Origin: Dehalococcoidia bacterium
GTDB lineage: Bacteria > Chloroflexota > Dehalococcoidia > Lucifugimonadales > UBA2962
Direction of reading: 5' to 3'
Assembly: GCA_034421295.1 (NCBI GenBank)
Contig: DAOUKM010000003.1
Span: 130,709 to 194,708, forward strand
Length of the DNA: 64,000 bases
Part shown: one piece after another, positions 3,348-56,332 of the stretch
Numbering within the stretch: the first letter of the stretch is position 1
Layout of the letters: every line of letters starts with the position of its first letter
Made by a program: the position numbers and the translations under genes
The notes under the pieces: generated by a model
Databases searched by the model: none
Told to the model about the DNA's origin: nothing
The model's input: only the letters and a program-made list of their open reading frames with translations

Positions 3348-3620
3348 GTGGAGCTGTGGCTCGGGATATCCACCGACGAGTTCAGCCGCACGCGGACATC
3401 GCGCGACCGGTGGATTCGCAACCGCTACCCGCTGATAGAAGCCGGCATGTCTAGGCGGGATTGCCTGGGATGGTGGGCGGCGCGCTACGACAGGCCGCTT
3501 GAGCGATCGGCCTGCGTGGGCTGCCCCTACCAGTCACGACGACGGTGGGTCGAGACCATGCGCAGGTGGCCAGAACTGTTCGCCGAGGCCGTGCGGCTTG
3601 ATCAGCTTGATCTCAAGCTC
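3348..3620 (+). pseudogene. remnant of a PAPS-reductase/phage-type adenine-nucleotide alpha-hydrolase gene (C-terminal part only)
   Basis: The translation GISTDEFSRTR...NRYPLIEAGMSRRDCLGWWAARYDRPLERSACVGCPYQSRRRWVETMRRWPELFAEAVRLD matches the C-terminal YPL(I/L)-x-G-x-R-x-DC...SAC-x-x-CP...W signature of PAPS-reductase-like proteins from phages and mobile elements. No N-terminal SGGKDS P-loop is found in frame upstream. The rest of the 341-aa ORF is low-complexity P/R/S-rich sequence. Confidence 0.35.
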
Positions 3621-4593
3621 CCGCATGCGCTCCTCGGCTATGTCCCGCTCCACCCGGTCTTCCTCCTCTACGCCGCCTCCGGGACGCACGCTGTGAAGGA
3701 CCATCTCAACCCCAGAAAATTCCATGAGCGCGCCTCCGCAATGCGGTATCGCAGTCCCTCTCCTCGATCCTCACTCGTGATCATTCCGACCGTGAGACTT
3801 GAACCCTGCCCCCTCGAAGAGCCTCATTCGGCCCCCGCACGACCTCCCGACATGACGCGTCAACGTCCGGCCGGAATTGCCCCACCGTGCGCCGCTGACC
3901 TCGCTCCGCTCACCTCGACTGCACCGTCCGATAGGACCATCAGGACCGAGAGCTTGGGGTCCTGTCTGACTTCCCTTTTGGGAACTCTCGACTGGAACGG
4001 GGGGGGCGAAAACTCGTTCGCCGATCCGGATGCCACTTCCCTTTTGTCCGCCTATATGCCGCCGCCCGCAGGCAAAAGTACAAGTGGAAATCAATCTCCC
4101 AATACCTGTACAGCCGCCCGACAGCGAAACGGTCCCAAACGGAGGGCCTGCGGCAGGGAGGCGACTACGCCGACAGTTCTGGGAAAGCACTCCAGGCCCG
4201 TCGGCAGAGACCGCATTCGATCCCACGAATCCGCGATGCCCAAAGGTGCTGAGAGATGCCGGCGCGGCCCCTGTCGACGCCCGTACCCGTGGAGTTCTTC
4301 TCTCATCCGGCGACTATCCGTCTGGCCACGGGTGATGATCACAGGGTCGACAGATCAGCAACAGCCGCACTGACTGCGCGCCCTTCAGCCTCGCCGTAAC
4401 CTCGATAGCCGGTCCCGTCACCCCATCCGGCCCTAGGCTCGGGCCATGCTCCAATGTCTCACGAACCCCGGCCTTTGGGACACATTGGCCTGCGACAGCA
4501 GGTGGCCGCTTTTGAGCGCCTTCTGCACATGGGCCAAGTTTGCCGATTTGTCAAACGCGGGCGTACCAGCACCAGGCCTCCCGTAATTCAGGG

Positions 4594-9310: not shown

Positions 9311-9970
9311 CTAGCTGCGGGCGGACCTGACCTTATCGAGCATGGGAGGAGGCAGGGGGAAGACCCATCCGCGGTTGCCTATGATCTCGGTCGCAAGTGA
9401 CCGGGGTATGGCTACTATCATCTCCGGCTCGATCGAAAAGCGTCCGTCGAAGCCGCCCATCGCGCTCCTGGCGTGCACGCCGGCAAAGCCGCCGCCGTCG
9501 ATTCCGTCGCTTGCGTAAGATCCCATGCCGCCGCCGAACACCGATTGCCACCGGAAGGAGTATCCATTGGTTACCTGCGGGGCGCCTGCGAACGCACCTC
9601 CCCCGGGCGAGACGACCATGCCCAGTGCCTTGACCGTATACAGGACGTCGTTGAGGTCGCCCTCTCCGGCGCAGCTAAGCGTCCAGTGAAGGGCTCTTAT
9701 GTGAACGTCTGCGGCCAGCTGCCCGCCCTCGTAGCCGTGCCTGAGGCGGTCCGCATCGTCGTTCATCGGGTAATCGCCGCCGATCGTGCCCGACAGGTAG
9801 ACCAGCCCGCTTTCCTGTACTACCGCCTTGGCGATGCCGGCTCCCGCCAGCGAAACGACGTCCTCCTCAAAGGACCCGAGATCGATCCCCAGTTCGTCTA
9901 TGCGTTCGTACACGTCGTAGCCGCGTCTCAGCTCCGCTGGTATGGACGATCGTTCGTAGTGCTGCCCCAT
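9311..9970 (-). CDS. RidA/YjgF-like superfamily protein (divergent, extended)
   Basis: 219-aa ORF co-directional with pncB. LVYLSGTIG and the later DLNDVLYTVKALGMV resemble the RidA/endoribonuclease L-PSP core. The assignment is weak. Confidence 0.35.
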   Translation of the reverse strand: MGQHYERSSIPAELRRGYDVYERIDELGIDLGSFEEDVVSLAGAGIAKAVVQESGLVYLSGTIGGDYPMNDDADRLRHGYEGGQLAADVHIRALHWTLSCAGEGDLNDVLYTVKALGMVVSPGGGAFAGAPQVTNGYSFRWQSVFGGGMGSYASDGIDGGGFAGVHARSAMGGFDGRFSIEPEMIVAIPRSLATEIIGNRGWVFPLPPPMLDKVRSARS

Positions 9971-10065
9971 ATTCTGTTCCCTCGCTGTGGCTGCGGCGGC
10001 GGTGCCGCCGCCCCGGATCGTACCAGAATAGCGATGGCACGGGGCGCGCCGCGGACTCCTGACCC

Positions 10066-10362
10066 CTAGCCCAGAAAGATGCTGATCCCGGCGTGGGTAA
10101 AGGAGACCTCCAGGACGGCCTTCCTCTCTCTCTGCAGGGTGTACGAGTACTCCTCCCGGCCCGGGTCGTCATCGTCGAGCAGGTGAGGGCAGGGTAGCCT
10201 CCGCTCGGTCTGCGGGCACAGGTGAAGGTCGTTGGTGCGGTCCCAGAAGCCGCACAGGCGCATGGGGAAATACAGCGTCTCGGCCGCGGTGCGCAGGTCG
10301 GCCACTATCTCGCTGGCCCTGAAGTCGCCGCCGCCTTCGAAGCTGACCTCGACGGTCTTCAC
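10066..10362 (-). CDS. hypothetical protein, translationally coupled to thiL
   Basis: 98-aa ORF whose start overlaps the thiL stop by 4 bp (10359-10362). I recognise no family. Confidence 0.4.
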   Translation of the reverse strand: MKTVEVSFEGGGDFRASEIVADLRTAAETLYFPMRLCGFWDRTNDLHLCPQTERRLPCPHLLDDDDPGREEYSYTLQRERKAVLEVSFTHAGISIFLG

Positions 10363-11378
10363 GGGGCGAAATGATCGAAGCCGCTTCGGCCCTCTATCCT
10401 TGAGCCGTCTTCGGCCACCACGCTCACACCACGCCGGTCGCTGAGCACCTCGCCGATCGAGACTATATCCGGGTCGACCTCGCGCGCCGCGTCGATAAGC
10501 CCCTGCGGCGCGGTAAACAGCAGCTGGTAGCCTTCCCCTCCGGAGAGGGCCATCTCTCTCCAGTCGTCCGGGAAGACCGTCTTGAGCTCCGGCTGGACCG
10601 GCAGATCGGCCATCCTTACCACCGCGCCCTTCCCGCTCGACCCGCAGACCCGCATCAGGTCGGCAAGCAGGCCGTCGCTGATGTCAACCGCACAGCGCAC
10701 TCCGGCCCCCGCAAGTCGAATGGCCGTCGAGACCCTCGGCCGTGGCCGCAGGTGTTCCCGGATAAGCGCCTCCGCCTCAGACCCCGCCACGTCCACTCGC
10801 TCCTTCAGGATCCTGAGCCCCCCGGCGGAGCCTCCCACCGGGCCTGTTACCGCTATCACGTCGCTTACCCGCGCCGCAGAGCGCGTCATGGGCCGCGTCG
10901 GCCGCCCGGTGGAGGCGGCCGGGTCGGTCCCTACCATGGCGACGGAGAGGAATATTCCGGCCGCCCTGACCACGTCGCCCCCGACGATTCTCCCTCCGTA
11001 ACGCGAGCAGGCCTGTGCCATGCCGACGTATAGACGCTCTATCGTCTCGACCTCTTCCGTGCCGGTAAGCCCTATCGTGACCGTCGAATATGCGGGGACG
11101 AATCCCATAGCGGCGATGTCGCTCTGACAGCTGACCATCGCCCTCCAGCCCACGTCCTCGGGACTCGAGTAGGCAAGATCAAAATGAGTCCCGGCGACCA
11201 TCGCATCGCAGGTAAGGACGGTTGTGCCGGCAGGGCCATCCCATGCCGCGGCATCGTCGCCGTTCTCGACAAGCAGCCGAAAAGGGTCATCCCGCTCGCC
11301 CCGGCGCGAGTAATTGGTCTCGAACACGCGTCTAAGCCTGTCTATGAGGCCGAATTCGCCGAGTTCCCGGACACTCAC
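10359..11378 (-). CDS. thiL: thiamine-monophosphate kinase
   Basis: 339 aa. ELGEFGLIDRL...GDDAAAW...LTCDAMVAGTHF and the AIR-synthase-like C-terminal domain are typical ThiL features. Confidence 0.9.
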   Translation of the reverse strand: MSVRELGEFGLIDRLRRVFETNYSRRGERDDPFRLLVENGDDAAAWDGPAGTTVLTCDAMVAGTHFDLAYSSPEDVGWRAMVSCQSDIAAMGFVPAYSTVTIGLTGTEEVETIERLYVGMAQACSRYGGRIVGGDVVRAAGIFLSVAMVGTDPAASTGRPTRPMTRSAARVSDVIAVTGPVGGSAGGLRILKERVDVAGSEAEALIREHLRPRPRVSTAIRLAGAGVRCAVDISDGLLADLMRVCGSSGKGAVVRMADLPVQPELKTVFPDDWREMALSGGEGYQLLFTAPQGLIDAAREVDPDIVSIGEVLSDRRGVSVVAEDGSRIEGRSGFDHFAP

Positions 11379-29760: not shown

Positions 29761-30696
29761 TGGTCCGATCTCCTTTCCCGATCTCCTCCGAAGAGACTTG
29801 GCTGGTGCGTGCTCCTTCAGGACGGCCTCGGGTGCCGATGCCAGTCCTGTCAGGTGCTGCGTGCTCCGGGTCCAATGTCTCGTTGATTGTCGCTTCTGCT
29901 AGGTTTGGCGATTTCATAATCGATCGGCTGCCCGATGGGCCCCATTCCCGGATCCGCCAGGGCTCCCGGCGACGTTCCCGGGGTTCGGCTCCGAGCAGTT
30001 AACGGGTCCCTATAGGCCATCCCCCACAGGAGAACTGCAGTCGGTCGTTGACACTGGTTCGACTAATGCTCCATGTCTCGATCAGATGCCCGGCTGGCTC
30101 CGTATTGGAATCCGACGCCAGACGCGTACGTTTTCCCTGTCGTATCCGAACCTCACTGTTTTCGGCCCGGCTTACGTACAGCCTTCGCGGAACCTATAGG
30201 TTAACGCCACGCGCCGACCACGATCCACCATTTTGGACCGGGAACTATTTTGGTACAACGGTTAAGGATAACGGAACCGAGCCACAAACAAAGATAATAC
30301 GCCACAACGCGCGATAAACAAGGTGGCACGGGTCGACTTTAGCTATCAATGCCTGCTCATCTGAGTATGCGGGGTTTGAGGGCGGCAGCGGTAGAAACCG
30401 GCCGCGAGGCACCCTCTCTGATCGGAGGGTCTCAGCCGGTCGGCGTCTCGGGCAGGCGGGGTTACGGAATCTAGCCGCCTGAAAGCGCATTCCGCCCGCC
30501 TGCGCGCGAGCCAGTCCCTTGTCGTGGGCAGGAGGCAGGGGCCCCGGGAATTCCCTTGCTCTGATCAGCCCTGGCAGATGGGAGGCGGGCTCAATGCCGA
30601 CCTGGGCTAAAATAGACCCTGTTTCGGTATCGTTCGCGGACGAGCCGGTTGTTTCCGCCTAGGGTTTTTTTGTGACCGAAGTGTAGAGTGAGCGCC

Positions 30697-31344
30697 ATGC
30701 TGAGATTCGCCGAAGAGATCGTACTGCTTTTGATCGACGACGAGGGCAGGTTTGCCAGCGTGCCCGATTGGTCCGTCAACCATGCTCTGGCCGGTGGCGT
30801 TCTGATGGATCTGGCGCTTGAGAACCGTATCGACACCGATCTGGAGAGTCTGATTCTGGTGGACCCTACGCCCGTCGGAGACAGTCTGCTCGACCGGACA
30901 TTGGCGGAGATTTCCGAAGGCGAAAAGCGCGACGCCCGATTCTGGGTGGAGCAAACGGCGGGACGGGCCGATGAGATCCGCGAGGAGGCACTGTCTCGCC
31001 TGATCTCTCAGGGAATCCTGGAGTGCAGGGACGACCGCTTCCTGTGGGTGTTTCGCTCCAAGCGCTACCCGGCGGTCGACCGCAAGGCAGAGAGGGATGT
31101 CAAGCTCCGGGTCATGGGGGTCCTGTTCAGCGATGAGATCCCTCACCCACGCGACGTGGTGATAATCTGCCTCGCCGACGCGTGCGGCATCTTCGGACGG
31201 CTACTGTCTAAGAGTGAGCTGGCGAAGGCCACTGCCAGGATCGAGCAGGTGCGAAAGCTGGATCTCATTGGGCAGGCCATGTCCCAGGCGATCGAGGATA
31301 TAGAGCTCTCGGTCGCCGCCTCAGTGCATCCGTACATGTATTGA
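30697..31344 (+). CDS. GPP34/GOLPH3-like family protein (stand-alone)
   Basis: MLRFAEEIVLLLIDDEG...RIDTD...EIPHPRDVVIICLADACGIF...KLDLIG is collinear with the N-terminal 225 aa of the two P450 fusions at 47.9-52.7 kb. The track start is GTG 30688. ATG 30697 is preferred because a TAGAGT -10-like box sits 7 nt upstream. Confidence 0.8.
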   Translation: MLRFAEEIVLLLIDDEGRFASVPDWSVNHALAGGVLMDLALENRIDTDLESLILVDPTPVGDSLLDRTLAEISEGEKRDARFWVEQTAGRADEIREEALSRLISQGILECRDDRFLWVFRSKRYPAVDRKAERDVKLRVMGVLFSDEIPHPRDVVIICLADACGIFGRLLSKSELAKATARIEQVRKLDLIGQAMSQAIEDIELSVAASVHPYMY

Positions 31345-35560: not shown

Positions 35561-35769
35561 AGTTCGGGGGCAGGCAGCGGGGTTAACGGCCGCCGGGTCA
35601 ACGAGGATCCCTCTGTCCGCTCCGCATTCGGACAGGAGAGCAGGGAGTCCACTCTTGCCAATTGGAGTCCGTGGCGGCAGGGCTGTCGTCCGCCGGATGG
35701 CCTTCCGTGCAACAACCGTGGCCGATTCGGGCATCACCCGCTGAGACGGCAGGATGCGCGTCCTCTTCG

Positions 35770-36138
35770 ATGCCCGCTCGTCCGCCGCCGGCCGGAGCTG
35801 CCTTGATCCTCTATTATGACGGCGATTGCCGGTTCTGCACCGCATGCGTCAGATGCCTGAGCCGGCTCGACTGGCGGAACCGGATCTCCTGGGAGCCCTG
35901 GCAGAATATGGCGTCACTACCGCGGGGATTGACGTGCGATGACCTGGAGAGAGCGGCATATCTGGAGGATGACCGCGGAGACATCCATGAGGGCTTCTTC
36001 GCTTTTCGAAGGCTGCTGGTGGAGCTGCCTGTTCTCGTCCCACTGGGCCTCCTGATGTGGCTGCCCGGGCTCCACCTCATCGGAGTCCCGCTCTACAGAC
36101 TGGTCGCCAGAAATCGGCGCACGATATCGGGCTGCTAG
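35770..36138 (+). CDS. DCC1-like thiol-disulfide oxidoreductase family protein (DUF393)
   Basis: LILYYDGDCRFCTACVRCLSRLDWRNRI is the DUF393 CxxC signature. The probable start is ATG 35770, within track ORF 35662-36138. Confidence 0.75.
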   Translation: MPARPPPAGAALILYYDGDCRFCTACVRCLSRLDWRNRISWEPWQNMASLPRGLTCDDLERAAYLEDDRGDIHEGFFAFRRLLVELPVLVPLGLLMWLPGLHLIGVPLYRLVARNRRTISGC

Positions 36139-44308: not shown

Positions 44309-46792
44309 ATGAACCAGGTGCTCGACAGGCTGAGCTGGCTGGTAACGGCCCGCCCGTACATCACGATAGTAGTTCTCATCTTGGTCACCTTGGTCTTGGC
44401 CGCCGGGGCTTCGCTGAGGCTCCCGCCGACGGAGGGGGCGGACGTAGCCTTCCTCCCGCCAGGGCATCCCGTCGCCGATGCTACCCGCGAGGTCAGCGAG
44501 TTCTTCAGCGACTCAGGCGATGTCAGGGTCGCAACCCTCATCTTCCGAGGCGAGGCGCTGACGCCCAGCGGCCTGTCTCAAATGGACTACCTGATCGATG
44601 CCGTCGCTGGCGACCCTAGCGTGAGCGGGCTTCTGGCTCCTCCCAACCCCATTACCGCGCCCGCGCCCATTATCGCAGCCGCGCTCGAGGTGGACGGCTT
44701 CGAGTCCGTCACCCAGGCGCAGATCGACTCCGTCCGCAGCGTGCCGGAGATCCGGACGGCTCTCTCGGCGATGACAGGGACCGACACGGACGGCACGCCG
44801 GTCGCAATCGCCAACTTCCGCCTGACCAACACGGGCGACGAGAAGATCCGGGACGCCGAGCGGCGGATCGGCGAGCTTGCCGCCGCAGATGAAGGTCCGC
44901 TGCACGTGAGCAGCCTGTCGCCTGTGATCATCGAGGACGAGTACAAGCAGGCCACGGAGTTGGGAATGGCGCCGTTTATAGGGCTGGCCCTGCTGCTGAT
45001 CGTAGTGCTGATCCTTCTCTTCACACGCACCGTCTCCGACATGCTGTTGACGCTGACGGGGCTTATCTTGTCGATCGCCGGGGTTATCGGGGCTGAGGGC
45101 TGGCTTGGGCCGGATGGGCTGGGCCTGATAGGCCCTCCAAGCTCGCTCACGGCAATGGTGCCCGTCATCCTGATCAGCCTGACGGTGGACTATGCCATTC
45201 AGACGGTCTCCCACTACCGCGAGCAGCGTATCGAAGGCGAGCCGGTCGCGGCCGCCACGCGGATTGGACTGCGACACGTCACGATTCCGCTGACGCTGGC
45301 AGCCGTAACCACGATCGTCAGCCTGCTGGCTACCCTCTTCTCGCCGATCGGGGTGATCGGCGACTTCGGCATCGTCGCGGGGCTGGGCGTGGCCATTAGC
45401 CTGGTGGTGATGCTGGCGCTTATCCCCGCCGGCCGGACAATCATCGACCGGCGGCGCGAGGTGCGAGGCACCCTGAAGCCCGCCCGGCCGATCTCGAACG
45501 CACTGCCAGGCATCCCCAAGGCGGCTGAGCTGCTCGGCAAATGGGTTACGCGCAGGCCAGCGCCCCACCTCATCGCAGTGCTCCTGATTACGATAGGCCT
45601 AGGGTATGCCGCCACCGGGCTGGAGTCCGAATTCAGTATCAAGGACCTCCTGCCCCGGGGCGGGGGCGTCCTGGAGGACATGAACACTCTGGAAGCTGCC
45701 GTAGGCGGATCGACGGAGATAGCCAGCCTTCTGATCAAGTCCGAGGCAACTGAGAGCCGCACGCTATTGAATCTCCACGATCTCACCAACGCCTTCGACG
45801 ACGAGCAGAACCGCCCGCGGGGCGCCGCGGGGCCCATCCAGGGATCATACGAAAGGTTCGTGTACGACTGGACCAACGACTCCGGTGAGCCCGGCGACAA
45901 GTACGACCCGGAGTTGGCAGCGCTCTTCCGCGAGGCTTCGCCCGGAGTGGAGCTCAATCCGGCGCTGATGCAGGAGTTCGTCGACAGGCTCTTCGAGAAA
46001 GAGCCGGAGCTGGCGCATTTCATGGTCAACGACCCGGATGGCCCCGATACGATGCTCCTCCAGTTCCCGATCCTCCCGGGCGATCCAGGGGGAACGAGGA
46101 CGCTCAATGACGACATAGACGAGCTGTGGCTCGGCGACGACAGCGCCGTTGCGGCGACTTCCGGCAGCATCGTCGCCGTTGCGGTCACCGACCAGATCAC
46201 CGAGGGACAGACAGAGTCGATCACCACGACCATCGCCGTCGCCCTAGGCATCCTCGCCATCTTCTTCTGGTTGACGCTTCGTCAACCCGCTTTGGCAGTA
46301 ATCGCCGTGGGGCCGATCGTCCTCGTCCTCTTCAGCGTGCTGGGCACGATGGCGCTGCTGAGCATCCCCTACACCCTGATAACCTCGATCATTACGGCCC
46401 TGTCGATCGGTATTGGAGTCGACTACACAATCCACGTGATCCATCGCTACCGAGAGGAATTCAACCGCGTCCGCAACCCGGAGAAAGCGGCGGTCCGCAC
46501 CCTTGCGACCACCGGTTCCGCCCTGTTGGGATCGGCGCTGACCACGGCGTTCGGATTCGGAGTCCTGATCGCATCGCCGCTGCTTGCGTTCCAGCAGTTC
46601 GGCATCACAGCCACCATCACGATCATCTACTCCCTGATAGTCTCGGTCTTTGTGGTGCTGCCCGCGATGGTGGTCTGGGGCGCGTACCAGAACATGCGAA
46701 TGCGCTCGATGGTCGAGCGTATGTGGGAGGATCTGGACGTGGCCATCGAGGACATCGCCCAGCTTCACCAGCAGGGTCGGGGCTCGTCCTAG
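44309..46792 (+). CDS. RND-superfamily exporter of the MMPL/HpnN-like branch
   Basis: 827 aa with a 1+5 TM, large loop, 1+5 TM topology. Conserved TVDYAIQ and GVDYTIHVIHRYREE motifs are present. Its stop lies 12 nt before the methyltransferase start, with GAGAGGGA as the RBS. Confidence 0.9.
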   Translation: MNQVLDRLSWLVTARPYITIVVLILVTLVLAAGASLRLPPTEGADVAFLPPGHPVADATREVSEFFSDSGDVRVATLIFRGEALTPSGLSQMDYLIDAVAGDPSVSGLLAPPNPITAPAPIIAAALEVDGFESVTQAQIDSVRSVPEIRTALSAMTGTDTDGTPVAIANFRLTNTGDEKIRDAERRIGELAAADEGPLHVSSLSPVIIEDEYKQATELGMAPFIGLALLLIVVLILLFTRTVSDMLLTLTGLILSIAGVIGAEGWLGPDGLGLIGPPSSLTAMVPVILISLTVDYAIQTVSHYREQRIEGEPVAAATRIGLRHVTIPLTLAAVTTIVSLLATLFSPIGVIGDFGIVAGLGVAISLVVMLALIPAGRTIIDRRREVRGTLKPARPISNALPGIPKAAELLGKWVTRRPAPHLIAVLLITIGLGYAATGLESEFSIKDLLPRGGGVLEDMNTLEAAVGGSTEIASLLIKSEATESRTLLNLHDLTNAFDDEQNRPRGAAGPIQGSYERFVYDWTNDSGEPGDKYDPELAALFREASPGVELNPALMQEFVDRLFEKEPELAHFMVNDPDGPDTMLLQFPILPGDPGGTRTLNDDIDELWLGDDSAVAATSGSIVAVAVTDQITEGQTESITTTIAVALGILAIFFWLTLRQPALAVIAVGPIVLVLFSVLGTMALLSIPYTLITSIITALSIGIGVDYTIHVIHRYREEFNRVRNPEKAAVRTLATTGSALLGSALTTAFGFGVLIASPLLAFQQFGITATITIIYSLIVSVFVVLPAMVVWGAYQNMRMRSMVERMWEDLDVAIEDIAQLHQQGRGSS

Positions 46793-46804
46793 GAGAGGGA
46801 ACCT

Positions 46805-47842
46805 ATGCAGCTTCGTGATCTATCCAACGGGCTGAAGGCCGCATACCGTGGGGCGGACGTCCGCAGTCGCGTGAAGCGCTTCGATGGGTGGATGGACAGG
46901 GCGCACGTGGATGGAGCCGGCACGGCGGACTACGACCACACCCAGACCGTCAAGGAATACTACGACCTATGCAGCGAGTTCATGGTGTTCGGTTGGGGTG
47001 AATCACTCCACTTCGCGCCGCTGTCGCCAAGGGAGAGTCTGGAGGAATCCAAGATCCGGCACCAGCGGCTGATGATCGCCAAGCTGGAGATGCGCGAGGG
47101 CATGACGGTGATCGACGTCGGCTGCGGGATCGGCGGTCCGATGCGCCGGGTCGCCCGCGAAGCCGGTGTCAGCGTGGTCGGGATCAACACCAATGAAATC
47201 CAGCTGGAGAGGGCAAGATCATTAGGCGCTCAGGCGGGGCTCGACCATTCGGTCGACTACTTGGCGTGCAGCTTCATGGACATGGGCGCCATCGCGGACG
47301 ACACGTTCGACCGGGGGTACGCGATCGAATCTACCTGTCATGCGCCGGACAAGGCGGGAGCGTTCGCCGAGATCTACCGCGTGTTGAAACCCGGAGCACT
47401 GTTCTGGGGTCAGGAAATGTGCATGACGGACAAGTTCGACCCCGGCGACAATCGGCACCTGGCCATCAAGAAGGACCTGATGCACGGTATCGCGCTCAAG
47501 GATATCGCGACCACCGGCGAGGTGAACCGCGACCTGGAAGCGGCGGGATTCCAGGTCATCGAGGCGAAGGACCGGGCGGTCGATGAGAACGGTTCCATCA
47601 CACCGTGGTACCAGCCCATGGAGGCCCGGGGCAATACGCTGGGCAACGCCCTGCGCAGGACTCCTCTGGGCCGCAAGGCGATCATCGGGACATCCAGACT
47701 GGCCGAAGCGGTGGGGATTTTCCCGAAAGGATCGGCGGACGTTGTCGGGTTGATGGATCGCACGGCCAAAGCCTACCTCGCGGGCGGCCGGGCAGGTGTT
47801 TTCACGCCCCTGTACTGCTTCCTGGCTCGAAAGCCCCTTTAG
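46805..47842 (+). CDS. sterol 24-C-methyltransferase (SMT/ERG6) family SAM-dependent methyltransferase
   Basis: 345 aa, collinear with ERG6-type SMTs. YYDLCSEFMVFGWGESLHF matches SMT region I (YEYGWGxSFHF). VIDVGCGIGGPMRRVA is the SAM motif. YAIESTCHAP matches the AIEATCHAP motif. The C-terminal Sterol_MT_C-like end GVFTPLYCFLARKP matches FTPMxxFxARKP. Confidence 0.85.
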   Translation: MQLRDLSNGLKAAYRGADVRSRVKRFDGWMDRAHVDGAGTADYDHTQTVKEYYDLCSEFMVFGWGESLHFAPLSPRESLEESKIRHQRLMIAKLEMREGMTVIDVGCGIGGPMRRVAREAGVSVVGINTNEIQLERARSLGAQAGLDHSVDYLACSFMDMGAIADDTFDRGYAIESTCHAPDKAGAFAEIYRVLKPGALFWGQEMCMTDKFDPGDNRHLAIKKDLMHGIALKDIATTGEVNRDLEAAGFQVIEAKDRAVDENGSITPWYQPMEARGNTLGNALRRTPLGRKAIIGTSRLAEAVGIFPKGSADVVGLMDRTAKAYLAGGRAGVFTPLYCFLARKPL

Positions 47843-47885
47843 ACGCTTTCCTCCCCAGTATCTCGAGCCCGATCTCTATGGTGGG

Positions 47886-49913
47886 CTAGACTTCTATCTC
47901 GTGCCGCTGCTCTGCGATGCGGAACTTCAGCTTCTTGCTTGGTTTCATCGACGGTATGGGGTTGAACCGGAACTTGAAGTTCGCAGGTGAGACCTCGAGC
48001 GTGAAGTAATGGGCAATCATCAGCACGGTGACGGCAAGGTGCAATTCCACCCACCGAGAGCCGAGACACCTATGCGTGCCCAGCCCGTACGGTGCGTAGC
48101 CGGGGCTGAGATGTTCGTTGCGCGGAGGCAGGTAGCGGTCGATGTCGAACTTGAACGGGTCTGGGAAGACGTCGCTCATGTAATGTGAGGCTGTCGTGGC
48201 GATGTAGAGGCGTGACCCGACCGGCAGCTCATAGTTCTCGACCACACACGAATTCATCACGGTCCGAAGTGACATGGGAATGATCGGGTACATCCGCAGG
48301 CATTCCATAAGGAAGCGGTGCGTGACGTCAATGGCCTCCCGGGTGAAGTCCCCGGCTTTTGGGTCGCCGTTGTCAAAGAGGGCATCTGCTTCACGCTGGA
48401 TCTGGCGGTAGAGCGCAGGCTGCGACGCCATAGCGTACACCGCTAAGCTCAGTGCATCGCCAAGGTACATGCTGGCCAGCAGTGGCGCCGTAAGTGTGAA
48501 CCGCATATTCGATTCCGGGAAAAACTGCGGATCGCTCCCGTGCAGGCTGAGCAGGTCATCCACAAGGTCCCGAGCGGCTCCAGCCCGCTGGGCCGATGTA
48601 TGTTTATCCTGGATCCGACGCAGCACCGTGTCGATGGCTTTCCCGCGACGCCTCATGTTCGGGGTATTCAGCATGAATTTGGGCAAGACCTTCAGTACGT
48701 GAACCGCAAGCGCCCTTTCCTTGTACATGATCAGATCGTCGACGATATCTTGCGAGTTAAGGCTTACAACGAGCGGCGAGAGCTGTGCATTAATCATTCG
48801 CCGGCTCATGCTAGTAGCCGGTAAGATGCCTCCAACCTTCCAATCTGCCATTTGCTTCCGGCCTTGATGAAACAGTTGGTCTATCTGGCCCGCAAGCCTC
48901 TCGCGGGAATAACCCGGCTGCATGGCCTTGCGAAGGCGGAAATGGTCGGCGCCATCGAGGGAAGGTATCAGCCCTGAGGCGCCAAAGGCCTCCTCCATGC
49001 TGGTGAAGTAATCTCTGGCTCTCAGGTGCATGCGTCCGCGCTTGTTCACCCAGTTGTTTGTCTCAGGCCCGGCCAGGAAGACCATGGGCTCTGCGAACGG
49101 TCGGCGGATCTCGAACACCGGGCCATACTCGTGCGCAAGGTCCGCGAATAACGCCGGGATGTTGCCGGTGCGGACGTGCGGATTCAATAGCAGCTTGCGT
49201 AGTGATATTGAGGGAATGTCCTTGGTGAGTGCGGAACGTCGAAGCAGCGGTCCGGCTAGGTTCTGGGAGACCGCATCAGCTATGGACCGGGCGATAAGAT
49301 CCAACTTACAGATGGCCTGGATGCGCTCATCTATCACTTCATCGAGTTGAAACATGAAGCGAAAGACGTCGCAGGTATCGATCAGGGCGATGATGATGAT
49401 GTCTCTCGGATCGGGAATCTCATTATTGAAGATGACTTTGCTGATGCGAGTCCTGACGAAGTGCGCCGCATTGCCGTCCGACGAAGCGCTGGCCACTTCC
49501 GCGCGTAAGGCGGCGCGGGAAAGCGTCCAGAATTCGCCGTCATGGTGTTCCAGGATCTTCAGTTCAACCAAATGATCCAGAGCCATATCAATTATGGACT
49601 CTGCACGTGGGGCGAGCCGTTCGATCCAGTACTGGGCGTTCCGCCGTGCCGATTCCCCCGCGATCTCGTTGAGTATGGGGTCCAGCGTAGGGTCACCTGT
49701 TTCTGTCCTGTCCAAAAGGAACAGGGAATCCATGTCAGTGTCGATGCGTGACATGAGAGAAAGTTCCGCGAGCGCGGCGCCGGCAACGGTGCAGTTCAGA
49801 TCCCAGCCTGGTACTTGGTGGAAGTAACCGCTCTCCTCATTGAGGAGCATCAGTATGAGTTCTTCCGGCAGGCTTAACTGTTTGGCCGCTTCACCGTCCG
49901 TGGTGAGAGTCAT
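47886..49913 (-). CDS. GPP34(GOLPH3-like) - cytochrome P450 fusion protein, paralog A
   Basis: 675 aa. Residues 1 to about 225 are collinear with the stand-alone GPP34 protein (EELILMLLNEE, RIDTD, EIPDPRDIIIIALIDTCDVF, KLDLIA). The C-terminal roughly 450 aa is a P450: ExxR is ECLRMYP, the PERF-like motif is FDIDRYL and the Cys-ligand loop is YGLGTHRCLGSRW. Confidence 0.9.
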   Translation of the reverse strand: MTLTTDGEAAKQLSLPEELILMLLNEESGYFHQVPGWDLNCTVAGAALAELSLMSRIDTDMDSLFLLDRTETGDPTLDPILNEIAGESARRNAQYWIERLAPRAESIIDMALDHLVELKILEHHDGEFWTLSRAALRAEVASASSDGNAAHFVRTRISKVIFNNEIPDPRDIIIIALIDTCDVFRFMFQLDEVIDERIQAICKLDLIARSIADAVSQNLAGPLLRRSALTKDIPSISLRKLLLNPHVRTGNIPALFADLAHEYGPVFEIRRPFAEPMVFLAGPETNNWVNKRGRMHLRARDYFTSMEEAFGASGLIPSLDGADHFRLRKAMQPGYSRERLAGQIDQLFHQGRKQMADWKVGGILPATSMSRRMINAQLSPLVVSLNSQDIVDDLIMYKERALAVHVLKVLPKFMLNTPNMRRRGKAIDTVLRRIQDKHTSAQRAGAARDLVDDLLSLHGSDPQFFPESNMRFTLTAPLLASMYLGDALSLAVYAMASQPALYRQIQREADALFDNGDPKAGDFTREAIDVTHRFLMECLRMYPIIPMSLRTVMNSCVVENYELPVGSRLYIATTASHYMSDVFPDPFKFDIDRYLPPRNEHLSPGYAPYGLGTHRCLGSRWVELHLAVTVLMIAHYFTLEVSPANFKFRFNPIPSMKPSKKLKFRIAEQRHEIEV

Positions 49914-50085
49914 CCGTCTTGCTCCCGTGGACCATGCCGATGTTCTAGGCTGCCCGGTACCGTCCGTATGAGGGACAGTTTATCCTACCGACGAGGTAGC
50001 GATGCAGCCTTTTGGCGGCTCTATAATGCGCAACGCGTCGGGGCTGTACAGGTCGTTCCTGGGCCCTGCACGGGCTACCCTGGCC
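49914..50085 (-). promoter_or_regulatory. conserved 5' region of P450 paralog A
   Basis: About 130 bp directly upstream of the start is alignable almost base-for-base with 52732 to about 52865. It includes GGGAG about 8 nt before ATG and TAGAAC (plus strand gttcta, 49942-49947). Confidence 0.5.
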
Positions 50086-50590
50086 GAGGTGATCGAGACC
50101 CGCACATTTCTGAATCTTGAGGATCTCACAACCGCCTTTGAGGACGAGTCGCCTTGTCCGCCGCAGGATGCAGGACCGATCCAGGCTCCGTGCCACCCGG
50201 CACTGAGCGACCGGGATGAAGACACTGTGGAGTCAGGAGACAGCTACGCCCCCGAGCTTGCGTCTCTCTACTGGGAAGCTTCCGTTGGCCTGGCCCCCGA
50301 CGAGGTTGCATCAAGGGGTGTGTAAAAACGATCAGGCGGCGACCCTCTCTATCTGTTCCTCGATGGGGATTCCCCCGACCGAGAGCTGATGCGACAGGCC
50401 GTCGAAAGGCTTGTCGACAATAACCGCACCTGACGTGCCTTCCATTGAACGATCCGGAAGGCATCGATACGCTGCCACCTCAGTTCCCGGTCTACCTGGG
50501 CGATCCCACGGGAACTGGGATGATCCAAGAGGAATTGGAATCGCTCTGGTCGGGCGACGACAGCGCCATCAAGGCGACTCTGGTGAGGAG
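50086..50590 (+). pseudogene. decayed internal fragment of an RND exporter gene paralogous to 44309-46792
   Basis: EVIETRTFLNLEDLTTAFEDES..AGPIQ...YAPELASLYWEAS aligns to ESRTLLNLHDLTNAFDDEQ..AGPIQ...YDPELAALFREAS of the intact gene. LNDPEGIDTLPPQFPVYLGDPTGT...LESLWSGDDSAIKAT aligns to VNDPDGPDTMLLQFPILPGDPGGT...IDELWLGDDSAVAAT. In-frame stops lie at 50323-50325 and 50431-50433, and the frame changes after the second. The TM domains and both gene ends are missing. Confidence 0.7.
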
Positions 50591-50703
50591 GCCGGCTTGG
50601 CAGCTCGAGTAAACGCCTGCCGCGTTTGGCCCCTCGTCGCCGCTCGTTACCGGCAATACGCTAGCCGGCTGGCTGCGCGGAGAGACGAATGCCCGGCGGA
50701 CGG

Positions 50704-52731
50704 TCAGGCGCGTATCTCATGCCTCTGCTCGGCCACCCTAAGCTTCACCTTCTTGCCCAGAGACAGTGACGGAAGTGGACTGATCTTTGGCCAATCACCC
50801 ACGGGGGAAACCTCAAGCGTGAAGTAGTGAGCGATCATGAGTGCATTGACGGCCAGCTGCAGTTCCATCCAGCGGGAGCCGAGACAGGTATGCGTGCCCA
50901 GGCCGAAAGGGGCGTACCCGGGACTGAGGTGCTCATTGCGTGGAGGCGTATAGCGGTCGATGTCGAATGTGAAGGGGTCGGGGAAGACGCCCTTCATAAA
51001 GTGCGTGGCCGTTGTGGCGATGAATATTCGTGATCCAATCGGGAGTTCATAATCCTCGACAACGCACGTATTCATCACGTTCCGAATAGACATCGGGACG
51101 ATGGGGTACATGCGCAGGGTCTCCATGAGGAAGCGGTGAGTAACGTCTATTGCTGACGGCGTGAAATCCCCGCCCTTCGGATCGCCGTCGCCGAACAGGG
51201 CATCAGCTTCGCTCTGGATCTTGCTGTAGAGCTCAGGTTGGGACGCCATTGCATAGAGCGCGAAGCTGAGTGCATCGCCGAGGTAGACGCTGGCGATCAG
51301 CGCTGCTGCGAGCTGGAAGCGTAGAGTCGTCTCCGGGACGAACTGCGGATCGCTTGCATGCAGGCTGAGCCAGTCGTCCGCAAGGTCCCGGGGAGAACCG
51401 GCCCGCTGGGCGGGCGTGTGGACGCCTTGGACCCGCTTCAGCAACGTGTCCACTGCCTTCGCCCTGTGTCTCATGTCAGGAGTGTTGAGCATGAATTTGG
51501 GCAGGACCTTAATGATGTGAGTCAGGAGCGCCCGTTCTTTGTACTTGGCCAGATCGTCAAAGACATCCTGAGATTCCACGCTGATAAAGAGCGGCGAGAG
51601 TTGCGCGTTGATCAGCAGGCGGCTCATGCCCGTTGCGGGCATGGAGTCGCCGACCTTCCAATCCGCCATGTGCTTTCGGGCATGGCGGTAGAGAATATCC
51701 AGCTGTTCTGCGAGCCTGCCGCGGGAATACGCCGGGGACATGGCCTTGCGAAGCCGGAAATGCTCTGCCCCGTCCATAGAAGGCATCACTCCGGACGCGC
51801 CGTAGACCATCTCGAAGTCGGAGAAATAGTCTTTAGCCCTCAGGTACATGCGTCCGCTTCGATGCACCCAGCGGTTCGTCTCTGTCCCGGCAAGGAAGAT
51901 CATGGGTTTCTGAAGCGGCGGGTGGATCTTGAATACCGGGCCATACTCTTCTGCCAGGTCCGCAAAGAGCGCGGCAATGTTGCCGCTGCGGACGTGCGGA
52001 TTCAGCAGCAGCCTGCGCAGTGAGACTGTGGGTATATCCTTGGTGAGCGCGGAACGCCTAAGCAACGGACCGGCCATGTTCTCGGAGACGGCGTCGGCTA
52101 TGGATCGGGCGATAAGGTCCATCCTGCAGATGGCCTGGATGCGCTCTTCTATCTCGTCATCGAGCTGAAACATAAAACGAAAGACATCGCAGGTATCGAT
52201 CAGGGCGATGATGATGACATCTCTCGGATCGGGAATCTCATTGTTGAATATGACCTTGCTGATGCGAGTCCTGACGAAGTGCGCCGCATTACCCTCTGAC
52301 GACGCGCTGGACATCTCCGCCTGCAGGGCGGCACGGGAAAGCGTCCAGAATTCACCTTCATGGTGCTCCAGGATCTTCAGTTCAACCAGACGGTCCAGAG
52401 CCAGGTCGATTACGGACTCTGCCCGGGGGGCGAGCCGTTCGATCCAGTACTGGGCGTTCCGCTTTGCCGGCTCCCCCGCGATCTCCTTGAGTATGGGGTC
52501 CAGCGCGGGGTCACCCGTCTCGGTCCTGTCCACAAGGAAAAGGGAATCTACGTCAGTGTCGATGCGCGAGATGAGGGAAAGTTCCGCGAGCACAGCGCCG
52601 GCAACGGTGCAGTTCAGGTCCCAGCCGGGTACCTGGTGGAAGTAGCCGCTTTCCTCATTGAGGAGCATCAAGATGAGCTCTTCCGGCAAACTTAGCCGTT
52701 TGGTCTCTACACCGTCTGTAGTGAGAGTCAT
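50704..52731 (-). CDS. GPP34(GOLPH3-like) - cytochrome P450 fusion protein, paralog B
   Basis: Same architecture and length (675 aa) as paralog A when started at MTLTTDGVETKRLSLPEEL (ATG 52731). The track ORF start 52821 adds 30 non-homologous residues. The Cys loop is FGLGTHTCLGSRW and ExxR is ETLRMYP. Confidence 0.9.
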   Translation of the reverse strand: MTLTTDGVETKRLSLPEELILMLLNEESGYFHQVPGWDLNCTVAGAVLAELSLISRIDTDVDSLFLVDRTETGDPALDPILKEIAGEPAKRNAQYWIERLAPRAESVIDLALDRLVELKILEHHEGEFWTLSRAALQAEMSSASSEGNAAHFVRTRISKVIFNNEIPDPRDVIIIALIDTCDVFRFMFQLDDEIEERIQAICRMDLIARSIADAVSENMAGPLLRRSALTKDIPTVSLRRLLLNPHVRSGNIAALFADLAEEYGPVFKIHPPLQKPMIFLAGTETNRWVHRSGRMYLRAKDYFSDFEMVYGASGVMPSMDGAEHFRLRKAMSPAYSRGRLAEQLDILYRHARKHMADWKVGDSMPATGMSRLLINAQLSPLFISVESQDVFDDLAKYKERALLTHIIKVLPKFMLNTPDMRHRAKAVDTLLKRVQGVHTPAQRAGSPRDLADDWLSLHASDPQFVPETTLRFQLAAALIASVYLGDALSFALYAMASQPELYSKIQSEADALFGDGDPKGGDFTPSAIDVTHRFLMETLRMYPIVPMSIRNVMNTCVVEDYELPIGSRIFIATTATHFMKGVFPDPFTFDIDRYTPPRNEHLSPGYAPFGLGTHTCLGSRWMELQLAVNALMIAHYFTLEVSPVGDWPKISPLPSLSLGKKVKLRVAEQRHEIRA

Positions 52732-52935
52732 CCGTCTTGCTCCCCGTGGACCATGCCGATATTCTAGGCCGCTCAGTACCGTCGGTAGGATGGACATTTT
52801 ATCCCACCGGTGAGGCAGCACTGCTGCATCCTGGTGGCCCTATGATGCGGGATGCGTCCGGGAGGCGCGCGTCCGGGGCTGGACGGATCGCTTCTGGGTC
52901 CCGCGGGTCGGGCGCGATTTACCCTGGCCGGATCC
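52732..52935 (-). promoter_or_regulatory. conserved 5' region of P450 paralog B (shared divergent region with the Rieske gene)
   Basis: Homologous to 49914-50085. TAGAAT (plus strand attcta, 52761-52766) lies about 30 nt upstream of the ATG and a GGGGAG RBS is present. Confidence 0.5.
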
Positions 52936-53086
52936 AGGCATACAGATCGAAAACTCATGAGAGGAGCGTTGAGCGATAGCAACTCGATTTAAGGCGCCCG
53001 CGGACGCCCCGCTGGCTTCCCCGTTTCCAGAGGGCTGGTATTTCGTCGCAAGCCGTCGCACCATCTTAAAGGCGAAGCTCATCCAG

Positions 53087-54028
53087 ATGACCTGGATGAG
53101 CGAGAGCATCGTAGTCTGGTGCGACGAGAGCGGGCGGGTCTGCGTATCCGAGGCCTATTGCCCCCACCTCGGCGCCGATCTGGGGCCTGAGGCCGGGGGG
53201 AGAGTATGCGATGGTCGGCTCGTATGTCCCTTCCATGGCTATGAGTTCGATGCAACGGGCCAGTGCGTCGCCACCCCTTTCTCCCCTCCGCCGAAATTTG
53301 CGAGGCTGCGGGTCTTCGAGACGCGAGAGATAGCCGGGATGATCTTCGCGTGGTGGGGAATCCGGGGACGGGCGCCCCAGTGGCACCTGCCCTCAGAATC
53401 GCCTGACCAGACTGGTTGGAGCGATATTGATGTCAGGACCATCCGTTTTCCCGGGCATCCTCAGGAGACCACGGAGAACTCGGTGGACCTGGCGCACCTT
53501 CGGTACGTGCACGGTTACGACGGCGTAAACCGCGTCGGCCCCGTGTCCGTGGACGGTCCCCTTCTGGAAAGCAATTTCGACTTCACGAGAACCCGGACGA
53601 TCGCCGGTATAGCTAGCTTCACGTTCGATGTTTCAGCCAGGACCCGTATCTATGGACTGGGATACTCGTACGTGGAGATCCGCGAGCATTCCATCGGCAT
53701 GGACTTACGCCTGTGGATACTGGCGACTCCTGTCGACGGGAATCTAATAGACCTGTCTCTGGCAGGGCAGGTGCGGGAGATCAGTAACCCCAGGCGATGG
53801 ATATTGGGTCTCGGATTTCTCCCGGTGAGGCTGCGTGCGCCCATAATGAACAAGTTCATGGCCTCCCAGCAAGAAAAGGACGTGCGACAGGACGTGGTCA
53901 TCTGGAGCCGCAAGCAGTATAGGTCCCGCCCCCGCCTGTGCCGCTCCGATGGCGAGCTCATGCCATTTCGAGCCTACTGTGCCCAGTTCTATCCCGACCC
54001 CGGCGATTCTGACATCTCGGCTGTCTAG
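53087..54028 (+). CDS. Rieske [2Fe-2S] non-heme-iron oxygenase, alpha-subunit-like (true start probably upstream)
   Basis: The Rieske motif is CPHLGADL-x16-CPFHGYEF. The mononuclear iron motif is ENSVDLAHLRYVH (E-x3-D-x2-H-x4-H). The frame is open back to 52973 and encodes FPEGWYFVASRRTILKAK, the canonical first strands of the Rieske domain, but no ATG, GTG or TTG is present there. Confidence 0.85.
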   Translation: MTWMSESIVVWCDESGRVCVSEAYCPHLGADLGPEAGGRVCDGRLVCPFHGYEFDATGQCVATPFSPPPKFARLRVFETREIAGMIFAWWGIRGRAPQWHLPSESPDQTGWSDIDVRTIRFPGHPQETTENSVDLAHLRYVHGYDGVNRVGPVSVDGPLLESNFDFTRTRTIAGIASFTFDVSARTRIYGLGYSYVEIREHSIGMDLRLWILATPVDGNLIDLSLAGQVREISNPRRWILGLGFLPVRLRAPIMNKFMASQQEKDVRQDVVIWSRKQYRSRPRLCRSDGELMPFRAYCAQFYPDPGDSDISAV

Positions 54029-54274: not shown

Positions 54275-54925
54275 TTAGGAATCTAGCAGGGCCTCAAAAA
54301 GCTCTCGCCAGTCCTCTTCGCTCTCACTCCCGTACTTGACGCTGGACAATACGACGCCGTCGGAATCGACGGTCACGTAGGCGGCCTGGCGGGTGACGTT
54401 GTAGCTCCTAACCACCTGGATATCGGCCACGGTCATTGGCCACAGGAATCCCTCGGACTGCTTATAGGCGAGGATCTGTTCGGTGGTCTCCAGCGGGTCA
54501 ATGTTCACCGCAAGAATCCCCACGCGGTCAGCGTATTCGGGCTGAACTTCCTTAAGGTGCCTCAACGAGGCACGGCAGGTTGGTCACCATGTGGTGTAGA
54601 AGTAGAGAAGAAGGGGGCGGCCGCTAAAGCTGGCCAGGCTGACCTGCTGACCTTCGACGGTGGCCAGCATGAAGTCCGGGGCCCTCTGGCCCACCTTATG
54701 TCCAACCTCCAGGGCCATCTGGGTAGGCGGAGTGGTGGGAATGGCCGTTGCCGCCGGCTGCTGAGGTTCCTCGGCGGGGGCAGTGACCGTCGACGTTGAT
54801 ATCTGCCGGGTCGTAGGGCTGTCCGCCCCGGACGTCTCTCCACTACAGCCGGCAAGCACAGCGGCCAGGGAAAGGCCCATGACCAGGGGAAGTAATGCCG
54901 GTCTGCCAGTCAGGGTGCGCAACAC
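54275..54925 (-). CDS. TlpA/redoxin-like thiol:disulfide oxidoreductase lipoprotein with in-frame TGA at the active site (candidate selenoprotein, UxxC)
   Basis: Track ORFs 54584-54925 and 54275-54565 are in the same frame and separated only by TGA (54584-54586). The joined reading is ...RPLLLYFYTTW-[TGA]-PTCRASLRHLKEV..., with the TGA replacing the first Cys of WCPTC. The N-terminus has lipobox LAGC. The downstream part has the thioredoxin fold (YNVTRQAAYVTVDSDGVV). Confidence 0.6.
54557..54573 (-). other. SECIS-like hairpin downstream of the in-frame UGA
   Basis: The mRNA reads UGA-CCAACCUGCC-GUGCCUC-GUU-GAGGCAC. This is a perfect 7-bp stem starting 10 nt after UGA, with an apical GUU loop 17 nt after the UGA. 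Confidence 0.5.
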
Positions 54926-55175: not shown

Positions 55176-55556
55176 TCACCGGGCGACGGTGCACTCGTCG
55201 AAGACGACTATCCGGTCTGCGCGAACGAGCTTCCCGAAGAGAGTTACGTACTGACCCGTATCCAATCGCGAAACGGACTCCGGGTCATCGAACCGGCACT
55301 CAATGTATCGGTCCCGTTGCGATAGCCGATCGTCAAGGTGGAACTGAACCCTCGGGCCGTCAATATCCGTTATGTGGCCCGAAAACCTGCGCATTTCTTC
55401 GGCCGCTATCCGCCCGGCCAATCGGATGGGATTGGACTCTCTTTCGTGTTGATAAAGGTCATACAGGCTCTGAGGGCGAGATTCCTCTGTTCCGCACGCC
55501 GCTATCGCCAGAACGGCTAGCCCCGCCGCCATCAAAGAAAAAACCGTGATCTTCAT
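55176..55556 (-). CDS. hypothetical lipoprotein
   Basis: 126 aa. The signal peptide has a lipobox (MKITVFSLMAAGLAVLAIAACG). I recognise no family. Confidence 0.55.
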   Translation of the reverse strand: MKITVFSLMAAGLAVLAIAACGTEESRPQSLYDLYQHERESNPIRLAGRIAAEEMRRFSGHITDIDGPRVQFHLDDRLSQRDRYIECRFDDPESVSRLDTGQYVTLFGKLVRADRIVVFDECTVAR

Positions 55557-55777: not shown

Positions 55778-56332
55778 TCATGGACAATCCCTGTCACTGA
55801 TGGAGCCATCAGCGGTCTTGGTACGGCAGTAGATGACCCCATCCAATATCGCATCCTCAAGGTCGGCGTTCTCGAGATCTGCGCCTGTGAAGTCGGATCC
55901 GGACAGGTCGGCCTGGTAGAAGGAGGCTCCCCTGAGGTTGGCATCCTGGAAGCTCACGCCCCGCACGTTCGCTCCCTCGAAAAACACCCCTTCGAGGTTG
56001 GACCCTACGAAGCTGGCCCCCTCGAGGATCGCCTCAGAGAAATCGGCCGCTTCTCGGCCTCTGGAGCCCCCGCCCTGGACAGACGGGATCTCGCTGAAGT
56101 CCTGACCGTCGAAGCTGGCGCCCGGGCATTCGGCCTCTGGGCCTACAGCGCACCCCTGAACATCTTTGGGGACGGTGGGGACCGGGGTGATCGAAGGGAC
56201 CATAGTCAGCTGTGTCGAGAAACTGCCCGGCTCGCTGGTACAGGACAGGGCAAAGACAATGGTCACGGCCACCAGCGGGAACAGTACCTTCCCGGGGATG
56301 CCTAAGCGGTAGCCGCAATCGCCGCGCACCAC
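55778..56332 (-). CDS. pentapeptide-repeat lipoprotein
   Basis: 184 aa with lipobox FALSC. The C-terminal half is A(D/N)LxG pentapeptide repeats (ANVRGVSFQDANLRGASFYQADLSGSDFTGADLENADLEDA). Confidence 0.8.
   Translation of the reverse strand: MVRGDCGYRLGIPGKVLFPLVAVTIVFALSCTSEPGSFSTQLTMVPSITPVPTVPKDVQGCAVGPEAECPGASFDGQDFSEIPSVQGGGSRGREAADFSEAILEGASFVGSNLEGVFFEGANVRGVSFQDANLRGASFYQADLSGSDFTGADLENADLEDAILDGVIYCRTKTADGSISDRDCP

Follow-up and report, generated by a model that had tools for sequence, protein, structure and literature searches.

The DNA analysed here is a 64,000-nucleotide (nt) stretch of a Dehalococcoidia bacterium (contig DAOUKM010000003.1 of assembly GCA_034421295.1; hereafter the window), and the subject is a minus-strand gene for a redoxin-domain protein, a candidate selenoprotein, whose reading frame is interrupted by a TGA codon. 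The gene occupies 54275-54925 as a single frame of 216 codons plus stop, running from a GTG start codon (54923-54925) to a TAA stop codon (54275-54277), and the sole in-frame stop inside it is the TGA at 54584-54586 (Table 1). The encoded peptide around this codon reads RPLLLYFYTTW-[TGA]-PTCRASLRHLKEV, with YFYTTW-TGA-PTC-RASLRHLKEV as the closer context. An earlier sequence-only reading of the window had described two open reading frames (ORFs) sharing one frame and separated by a single TGA, which is borne out by this 54275-54925 frame. The window itself sits in a contig of 280,588 base pairs (bp) (ENA ERZ23495174, scaffold_121), and an independent Logan assembly has the same gene. The sample accessions gave no hit in a literature search.

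Scoring of the coding signal on both sides of every in-frame TGA in the window gave the top value to the TGA at 54584-54586, and the same two-sided scan over the window and 11 loci revealed no second in-frame TGA with coding signal on both sides. Annotation in every public assembly examined divides the gene in two: an N-terminal ORF with Trp113 as its last residue, and an ORF of 96 residues whose start codon is placed at a TTG (Leu) 7 codons past the TGA and inside the hairpin described below; in the orthologous locus L024, for example, the two calls are 3453-3749 and 3768-4058. Fragments of the split gene make up about 90 database clusters (protein clusters P0130-P0218).

Table 1 Features of the interrupted redoxin gene, in window coordinates
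Feature	Position	Strand	Basis and remarks
Complete selenoprotein gene (proposed)	54275..54925	minus	216 codons plus stop, read through the UGA; same architecture in orthologs
Lipoprotein signal peptide (predicted), residues 1-26	54848..54925	minus	Arg-containing start, hydrophobic core, lipobox L-A-G
Lipobox Cys27, predicted lipid-attachment site and first mature residue	54845..54847	minus	Sequence and ortholog lipobox
Pro/Thr/Ala-rich linker, residues 28-76	54698..54844	minus	Translation; lowest conservation within the ortholog alignment
Thioredoxin-fold redoxin domain, residues 77-202, active site W-U-P-T-C	54320..54697	minus	Pfam, NCBIfam and PDB matches
In-frame UGA, proposed selenocysteine codon 114	54584..54586	minus	First (nucleophilic) Cys position of CxxC; TGA in 19/19 loci
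TGC codon, Cys117, resolving Cys of UxxC	54575..54577	minus	Codon invariant in orthologs
SECIS-type hairpin	54557..54573	minus	7-bp stem, GUU loop; codons R-A-S-L-R-H; 10 nt past the UGA
True stop TAA	54275..54277	minus	Orthologs stop at the same position with TAA, TAG or TGA

Conservation of the TGA and of the frame beyond it

TGA stands at this codon in 19 of 19 orthologous loci read as DNA, which represent 14 distinct sequences around the site. The orthologs come from metagenome-assembled genomes (MAGs) of Dehalococcoidia or from metagenome contigs, with 43-94% protein identity where measured, and every ortholog with a named source genome belongs to a Dehalococcoidia MAG. A first protein search returned two close relatives ending in ...YFYTTW and one beginning just past the hairpin. 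Read as DNA, the loci L001-L003 share both this TGA codon and the hairpin. Scanning GTDB species, each represented by a single genome, added ten loci (L004-L013, all from Dehalococcoidia MAGs and spanning the same identity range), of which ten of ten have the TGA, and four more divergent members (L106-L109) all have it as well.

Profile searching extended the family further: the C-terminal fragments, 96 residues long, and the N-terminal fragments each formed about 45 clusters, and every N-terminal one ends with [YF]F[YF][TA][TR]W at the same Trp residue. No ortholog with Cys (TGC or TGT) at the site was seen among the ~45 clusters, and the full-length relatives are all at or below 33% identity. 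The nearest of these are Cys proteins with WCPPC, such as a TlpA-family protein from Calderihabitans (31%), and remote homologs carry WCPPC or WCSTC, while distant Rickettsiales homologs matching the same peptide pattern have TGC at the site. A metagenome scan using a query with Cys in place of U ('YFYTTWC', and hence biased to Cys proteins) retrieved no orthologs, only relatives with up to about 31% identity over most of the domain, a value exceeded on short segments only. Homologs at the aligned position have either TGA or, when remote, Cys, and the unrelated truncations against which the sequence-only reading had advised checking were absent. Nor was TGC or TGT found in place of TGA in any assembly of the gene: the TGA is agreed across independent ENA, NCBI and Logan assemblies, which comprise short-read and long-read data from many samples.

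The frame continues for exactly 103 codons past the TGA in every ortholog except L003, where a late frameshift occurs in a long-read assembly, and there are no indels. It is closed by TAA, TAG or TGA, the last in L002, L005 and L007. Within clades, the ratio of nonsynonymous to synonymous substitution rates (dN/dS) is 0.04-0.22 downstream of the TGA and 0.07-0.14 upstream, a similar range, and the invariant resolving Cys lies past the TGA but ahead of the first possible restart codon. The downstream part is thus translated in frame and is under purifying selection. As to L003, its long-read contig (ENA ERZ25074053) shows frameshifts at both gene ends (about 9500-10490) relative to the near-identical L008, which are probably assembly indel errors.

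A genuine stop at the UGA would leave a 113-residue lipoprotein fragment without an active site and a separate 96-codon ORF, the hairpin then serving some other purpose, such as translational coupling or RNA stability. Although the public gene calls give exactly these two pieces and a TTG is indeed present 7 codons past the TGA, the cut would fall between strand beta-1 and the CxxC helix, within the active-site turn (W / PTC), so that neither piece is a complete domain, and the second piece has no signal peptide. Moreover, the six codons from the TGA to the TTG (P-x-C-R-A-S) are conserved as protein, which is unexplained if they are untranslated, and the frame relation of the two parts is constant in the 19 loci. 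Two separate polypeptides are, on this balance, very improbable. The use of UGA as a sense codon throughout the genome, as in genetic code 4 or 25, is favoured by nothing further than the in-frame TGA itself. Against it, TGA terminates 8 of the 17 confident genes of the window, as well as this very gene in the three orthologs named above, and the window holds no other in-frame TGA with a two-sided coding signal; this explanation is refuted.

The hairpin after the UGA

The UGA is followed by 10 nt (CCAACCUGCC), the 5' arm GUGCCUC (54567-54573), the loop GUU (54564-54566) and the 3' arm GAGGCAC (54557-54563), with a distance of 17 nt from the UGA to the loop. The perfect 7-bp stem 10 nt downstream and the loop position given in the sequence-only reading match these coordinates. 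The folding energy is -11.2 kcal/mol for the isolated hairpin and -15.4 kcal/mol for the 45 nt from the UGA, and a 71-nt fold has z = -2.6. A published model of the bacterial selenocysteine insertion sequence (SECIS) allows a loop of 3-9 nt with G within its two leading positions, a stem of 4-16 bp, a distance of 16-37 nt from the UGA and an energy of -7.5 kcal/mol or lower (PMC13188914, Fig. 2 legend). The GUU loop, 7-bp stem, 17-nt spacing and -11.2 kcal/mol satisfy all of these constraints, in agreement with the earlier remark that spacing and a G/U-containing loop suit a bacterial SECIS; the energy bound is kept in every ortholog but one. In comparison with the SECIS elements modelled in bSECISearch (Zhang & Gladyshev 2005, constraints in PMC13188914), the hairpin shares the 3-nt loop beginning with G-U, an upper stem of 5-7 bp and the 17-nt spacing, but it is very small, plain and free of bulges, and would be the putative binding site of SelB.

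Taken alone, the hairpin is weak evidence and lies little beyond chance. Of the 1872 TGA triplets in the window, 113 (6%) are followed by a stem of 7 bp or more that satisfies the model, and 65% by one of 4 bp or more, under its permissive form; by folding energy over the 45 nt from the UGA, this site ranks no higher than the top 10% of window TGAs. The observation is far beyond chance because the TGA coincides with the catalytic Cys and is conserved in orthologs. A search for further copies of the hairpin found no second one, and a permissive E-value scan of 54400-54750 against Rfam gave noise only, with no resemblance to a known family.

Selection on the hairpin is evident from its codons. 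In the 14 distinct sequences, the stem codons for R-A-S-L-R are CGU (CGC once), GCC, UCG, UUG and AGG, otherwise unvaried, and the GUU loop is invariant; UUG makes up just 8% of the Leu codons in this genome. When columns with invariant amino acids and at least four-fold degenerate codons were compared, synonymous variation was absent from 4 of 5 in the hairpin but from none of the 24 in the rest of the gene (Fisher p = 2e-4). In the divergent ortholog L108 the hairpin reads GCGCUGC-GUU-GCAGCGC; three compensatory double changes (U-A to C-G, C-G to U-A and U-A to G-C) leave the GUU loop and all 7 bp of the stem intact, while the peptide shifts from CRASLRH to CRAALQR. L106 and L107 each have one A-to-G change that turns a U-A pair into U-G. 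In the alignment of the 14 sequences, pairing holds in 91.8% of cells and both sides are changed in three pairs, values that 0 of 500 column shuffles reach; slid controls, in which the 3' arm was moved by 1-3 columns, had 28-50% of cells paired and no compensation. Covariation was absent from the first nine sequences (RNAalifold) and appeared once the more divergent orthologs had been added. The hairpin is held by selection at the RNA level.

These results bear also on the possibility that the gene is a pseudogene, or that its TGA arose by error in sequencing or assembly or by random nonsense mutation. The window by itself shows just a gene interrupted by a stop, and a hairpin of this kind follows 6% of TGAs by chance, which would be in keeping with such an origin. 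The same TGA is found, however, in independent short- and long-read assemblies from many samples and in 10 species-level genomes, and both the purifying selection downstream and the compensatory changes in the hairpin speak against it; this explanation is likewise refuted. The sequence-only reading had judged a random nonsense mutation at this codon unlikely, and the conserved TGA, the selected downstream frame and the compensated hairpin uphold that judgement.

Redoxin domain and decoding of the UGA

Domain searches were performed with the translation carrying Cys in place of the TGA. Matches above the gathering cut-offs were obtained in Pfam to Redoxin (PF08534; 9e-19, 68.2 bits against a cut-off of 26.6) and to AhpC-TSA (PF00578; 2e-18, 66.8 bits against 26). 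The best NCBIfam match is the ResA subfamily (2.7e-18), with 66.5 bits, under the curated cut-off of 170, and the TlpA model gave 39.1 bits, under its cut-off of 230 (ResA/TlpA models NF002854 and NF047696). A sequence search of the PDB gave ResA/TlpA-type proteins as the best solved relatives (2ls5, 8e-15; ResA 4nmu, 4e-14; also TlpA 1jfu), and in the alignments to 2ls5 and ResA the TGA codon falls exactly on the first Cys of W-C-x-x-C, which confirms the placement W-[TGA]-P-T-C proposed from the sequence. The label 'TlpA-like' given to the protein at that time is fair as regards these relatives, but the scores stay below the NCBIfam ResA/TlpA cut-offs and are best on Pfam Redoxin and AhpC-TSA. 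Curated NCBIfam models of selenoprotein redoxins were also missed, namely NF041054 (WAxxUGC, 22.8 against 300), NF053656 (TUGYCR, 22.2 against 100), NF041057 (Rcas_1661, 16.2 against 190) and NF040769 (SelL-related, 23.3 against 120).

By motif reading, the N-terminus MLRTLTGRPALLPLVMGLSLAAVLAG-C is a lipoprotein signal peptide, and an [LVF]-x-[GA]-C lipobox is present in 15 of 17 distinct ortholog N-termini, with an L-P-A-C variant in L011. By homology, the protein would be a membrane-tethered, extracytoplasmic thiol-disulfide oxidoreductase. Thioredoxin-fold proteins have a conserved cis-Pro loop opposite the CxxC motif. In the HMMER sequence alignment, the P-L-P-T (cis-Pro) loop of ResA 4nmu is matched by R-Q-A-A in the redoxin (about residues 109-113); Q111 and A112 are invariant throughout the family, and the position reads Q-A-A/G without Pro. 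The protein probably works like the ResA/TlpA families, whose curated cut-offs for membership it does not reach. Peroxiredoxin-like (Prx-like) chemistry may apply instead, since the top Pfam families are of peroxiredoxin type and no Pro occupies the position of the ResA loop.

Selenoproteins of the UxxC redoxin, TlpA-like and Prx-like types have been known since 2004-2005. The redoxin shares with them common Pfam domains, the UxxC motif, selenocysteine (Sec) at the position of the first Cys and a SECIS directly past the UGA, and differs in its lipoprotein signal and long Pro/Thr linker; its placement near the UxxC groups (representatives WP_010940744.1, MGB1650493.1 and HEU0032618.1) is by domain and motif criteria only. 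With Cys-containing oxidoreductases of the ResA/TlpA/CcmG type it has in common the T-W-C/U-x-x-C context, the N-terminal membrane anchor and the best NCBIfam and PDB matches, whereas it would have Sec for the nucleophilic Cys and has the Pro-free Q-A-A/G in alignment with the ResA P-L-P-T loop. Pfam searches on the large ORFs of the window found no genes for cytochrome c maturation, CcdA or copper proteins near it. The thioredoxin-like (seleno)lipoprotein family of Rcas_1661 (NF041057; 'DsbG-like protein' in PMC13188914) also combines UxxC with a lipoprotein signal, but the redoxin lies outside this family (16 bits against the cut-off of 190). In Sargasso Sea data the Prx-like family had 22 Sec and 4 Cys members (PMC1088965, Table 2), so that Sec forms far outnumber Cys forms, as they do in the redoxin described here.

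The main proposal of the sequence-only reading, a candidate UxxC selenoprotein, is supported by the conserved TGA, the selection downstream and the RNA-level selection on the hairpin, which are established together with in-frame translation beyond the UGA and a domain identity that puts U on the catalytic Cys. We consider it very likely that the locus is one gene for a Sec-containing, membrane-anchored redoxin of a Dehalococcoidia bacterium, with the UGA read by means of the SECIS hairpin. Several observations weigh against this conclusion. The three compensatory pairs all come from one sequence, L108, on a contig labelled 4x and apparently of low coverage. The hairpin of clade B has lost its bottom G-C pair, leaving a stem of 5-6 bp and -8.2 kcal/mol, and the isolated hairpin of L009 has just -7.3 kcal/mol. 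Neither selA, selB and selD nor a gene for tRNA-Sec was found in the 64-kb window or in the locus flanks that were fetched (ARAGORN and Rfam for tRNA-Sec; tblastn with E. coli SelA, SelB and SelD; Pfam on large ORFs), and neither the window nor the flanks of L001-L013 yielded a further selenoprotein candidate. Finally, the comparative evidence speaks for read-through and for a selected hairpin, not for which residue is inserted.

This last point, along with the missing Sec machinery in window and flanks, also counts in favour of a recoding of the UGA to a residue other than Sec, either to Cys via a tRNA-Sec-like tRNA or to Trp or Cys by near-cognate read-through stimulated by the hairpin. Natural recoding of UGA to Cys through tRNA-Sec-like tRNAs has reportedly been found (by Mukai et al. 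in 2016). The site, however, is the nucleophilic Cys of CxxC, the classic place of exchange between Sec and Cys, and a TGC codon would serve for Cys, yet the ~45 clusters hold no ortholog with TGC or TGT. In addition, both the loop sequence and the spacing of the hairpin suit a SECIS model of the SelB type (PMC13188914), and heavy use of Sec is documented for the class Dehalococcoidia (PMC13326102). Insertion of a non-Sec residue is thus improbable.

Support for the Sec machinery in the host is at class level and comes from the literature (PMC13326102). The ten bacteria richest in selenoproteins in BSepDB include two Dehalococcoidia MAGs, which have 49 and 46 selenoprotein genes (PMC13326102, Table 2), and one of the two shares its isolate-naming scheme with several of the ortholog genomes. 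A protein database search with SelA of Aquifex aeolicus returned, among the matches listed, nearly all Aquificota-type sequences. A SelD candidate in the window (10359-11378, minus strand; tblastn, 27% over 258 residues) was rejected as thiamine-phosphate kinase ThiL of the AIR-synthase family, which it matches in NCBIfam with 246 bits against 52 for SelD.

For a Sec-containing redoxin, the established bacterial pathway suggests that a ribosome reaching the UGA at 54584-54586 would meet the hairpin 10 nt further on, which would recruit SelB-GTP-Sec-tRNA(Sec), and Sec would be inserted in place of termination. To judge from its sequence, the 216-residue product would be exported and lipidated on Cys27, and the Pro/Thr-rich linker would tether the redoxin domain to the outer face of the cytoplasmic membrane. 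By homology to redoxins of the ResA/TlpA type, the selenolate of Sec114 would act as the attacking nucleophile of the UxxC motif, with Cys117 as the resolving residue, and disulfides or other oxidised sulfur species in exported substrates would be reduced.

The gene is almost certainly a selenoprotein gene of an already known type and not a new kind, and it leaves the understanding of Sec decoding and of redoxin function unchanged. As a clean case backed by comparative evidence, its recognition puts right the annotation of about 45 sequence clusters, in which the gene is otherwise split into two 'hypothetical' fragments, and gives the selenoproteome of a class already known as selenoprotein-rich an exported, lipid-anchored UxxC redoxin. 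The tiny hairpin with its natural compensatory variants is also a handy test object for the recognition of SECIS by SelB in Chloroflexota. More tentatively, and with the balance somewhat against it, the orthologs might be a subfamily of their own, as yet confined to Dehalococcoidia, of redoxin lipoproteins with an obligatory Sec, in view of the lack of a Cys ortholog in the ~45 clusters, the Ala at the cis-Pro position, a minimal SECIS within the near-invariant C-R-A-[SA]-L, the position outside the curated selenoprotein models and the systematic splitting by public gene calls.

Gene neighbourhood

Conservation of the neighbourhood is confined to two small lipoprotein genes in the closest relatives. 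Both lie upstream of the redoxin gene on the minus strand: a predicted lipoprotein of 126 residues with the lipobox AIAAC and no family match (55176-55556), and a predicted pentapeptide-repeat lipoprotein with the lipobox FALSC (55778-56332). The order of these two genes and the redoxin gene is kept in L002, L024 and L025, and L001 has the pentapeptide gene only. A tight operon of the redoxin and lipoprotein genes is disfavoured because the gaps are 220-250 bp. Apart from the redoxin gene, just one thiol-redox gene was noticed in the window, that for a DCC1-like thiol-disulfide oxidoreductase (35662-36138).

Adjoining the redoxin gene on the other side, 44309-54028 looks like a run of sterol- or steroid-modifying genes, whose members include an MMPL transporter with a sterol-sensing domain (44309-46792), a Sterol_MT_C methyltransferase (46805-47842), two P450 genes and a Rieske/KshA-type oxygenase (53087-54028). 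In L107, a gene of the ERG4/ERG24 family follows the redoxin gene. GPP34 (Golgi phosphoprotein 3) domains occur in 47886-49913, 50704-52821 and 30688-31344; in two of these three genes the domain is joined N-terminally to a cytochrome P450, and the third is standalone. Fusions of GPP34 with P450 are unusual in a bacterium, and the bacterial sterol methyltransferase in a Dehalococcoidia MAG may merit a look of its own.

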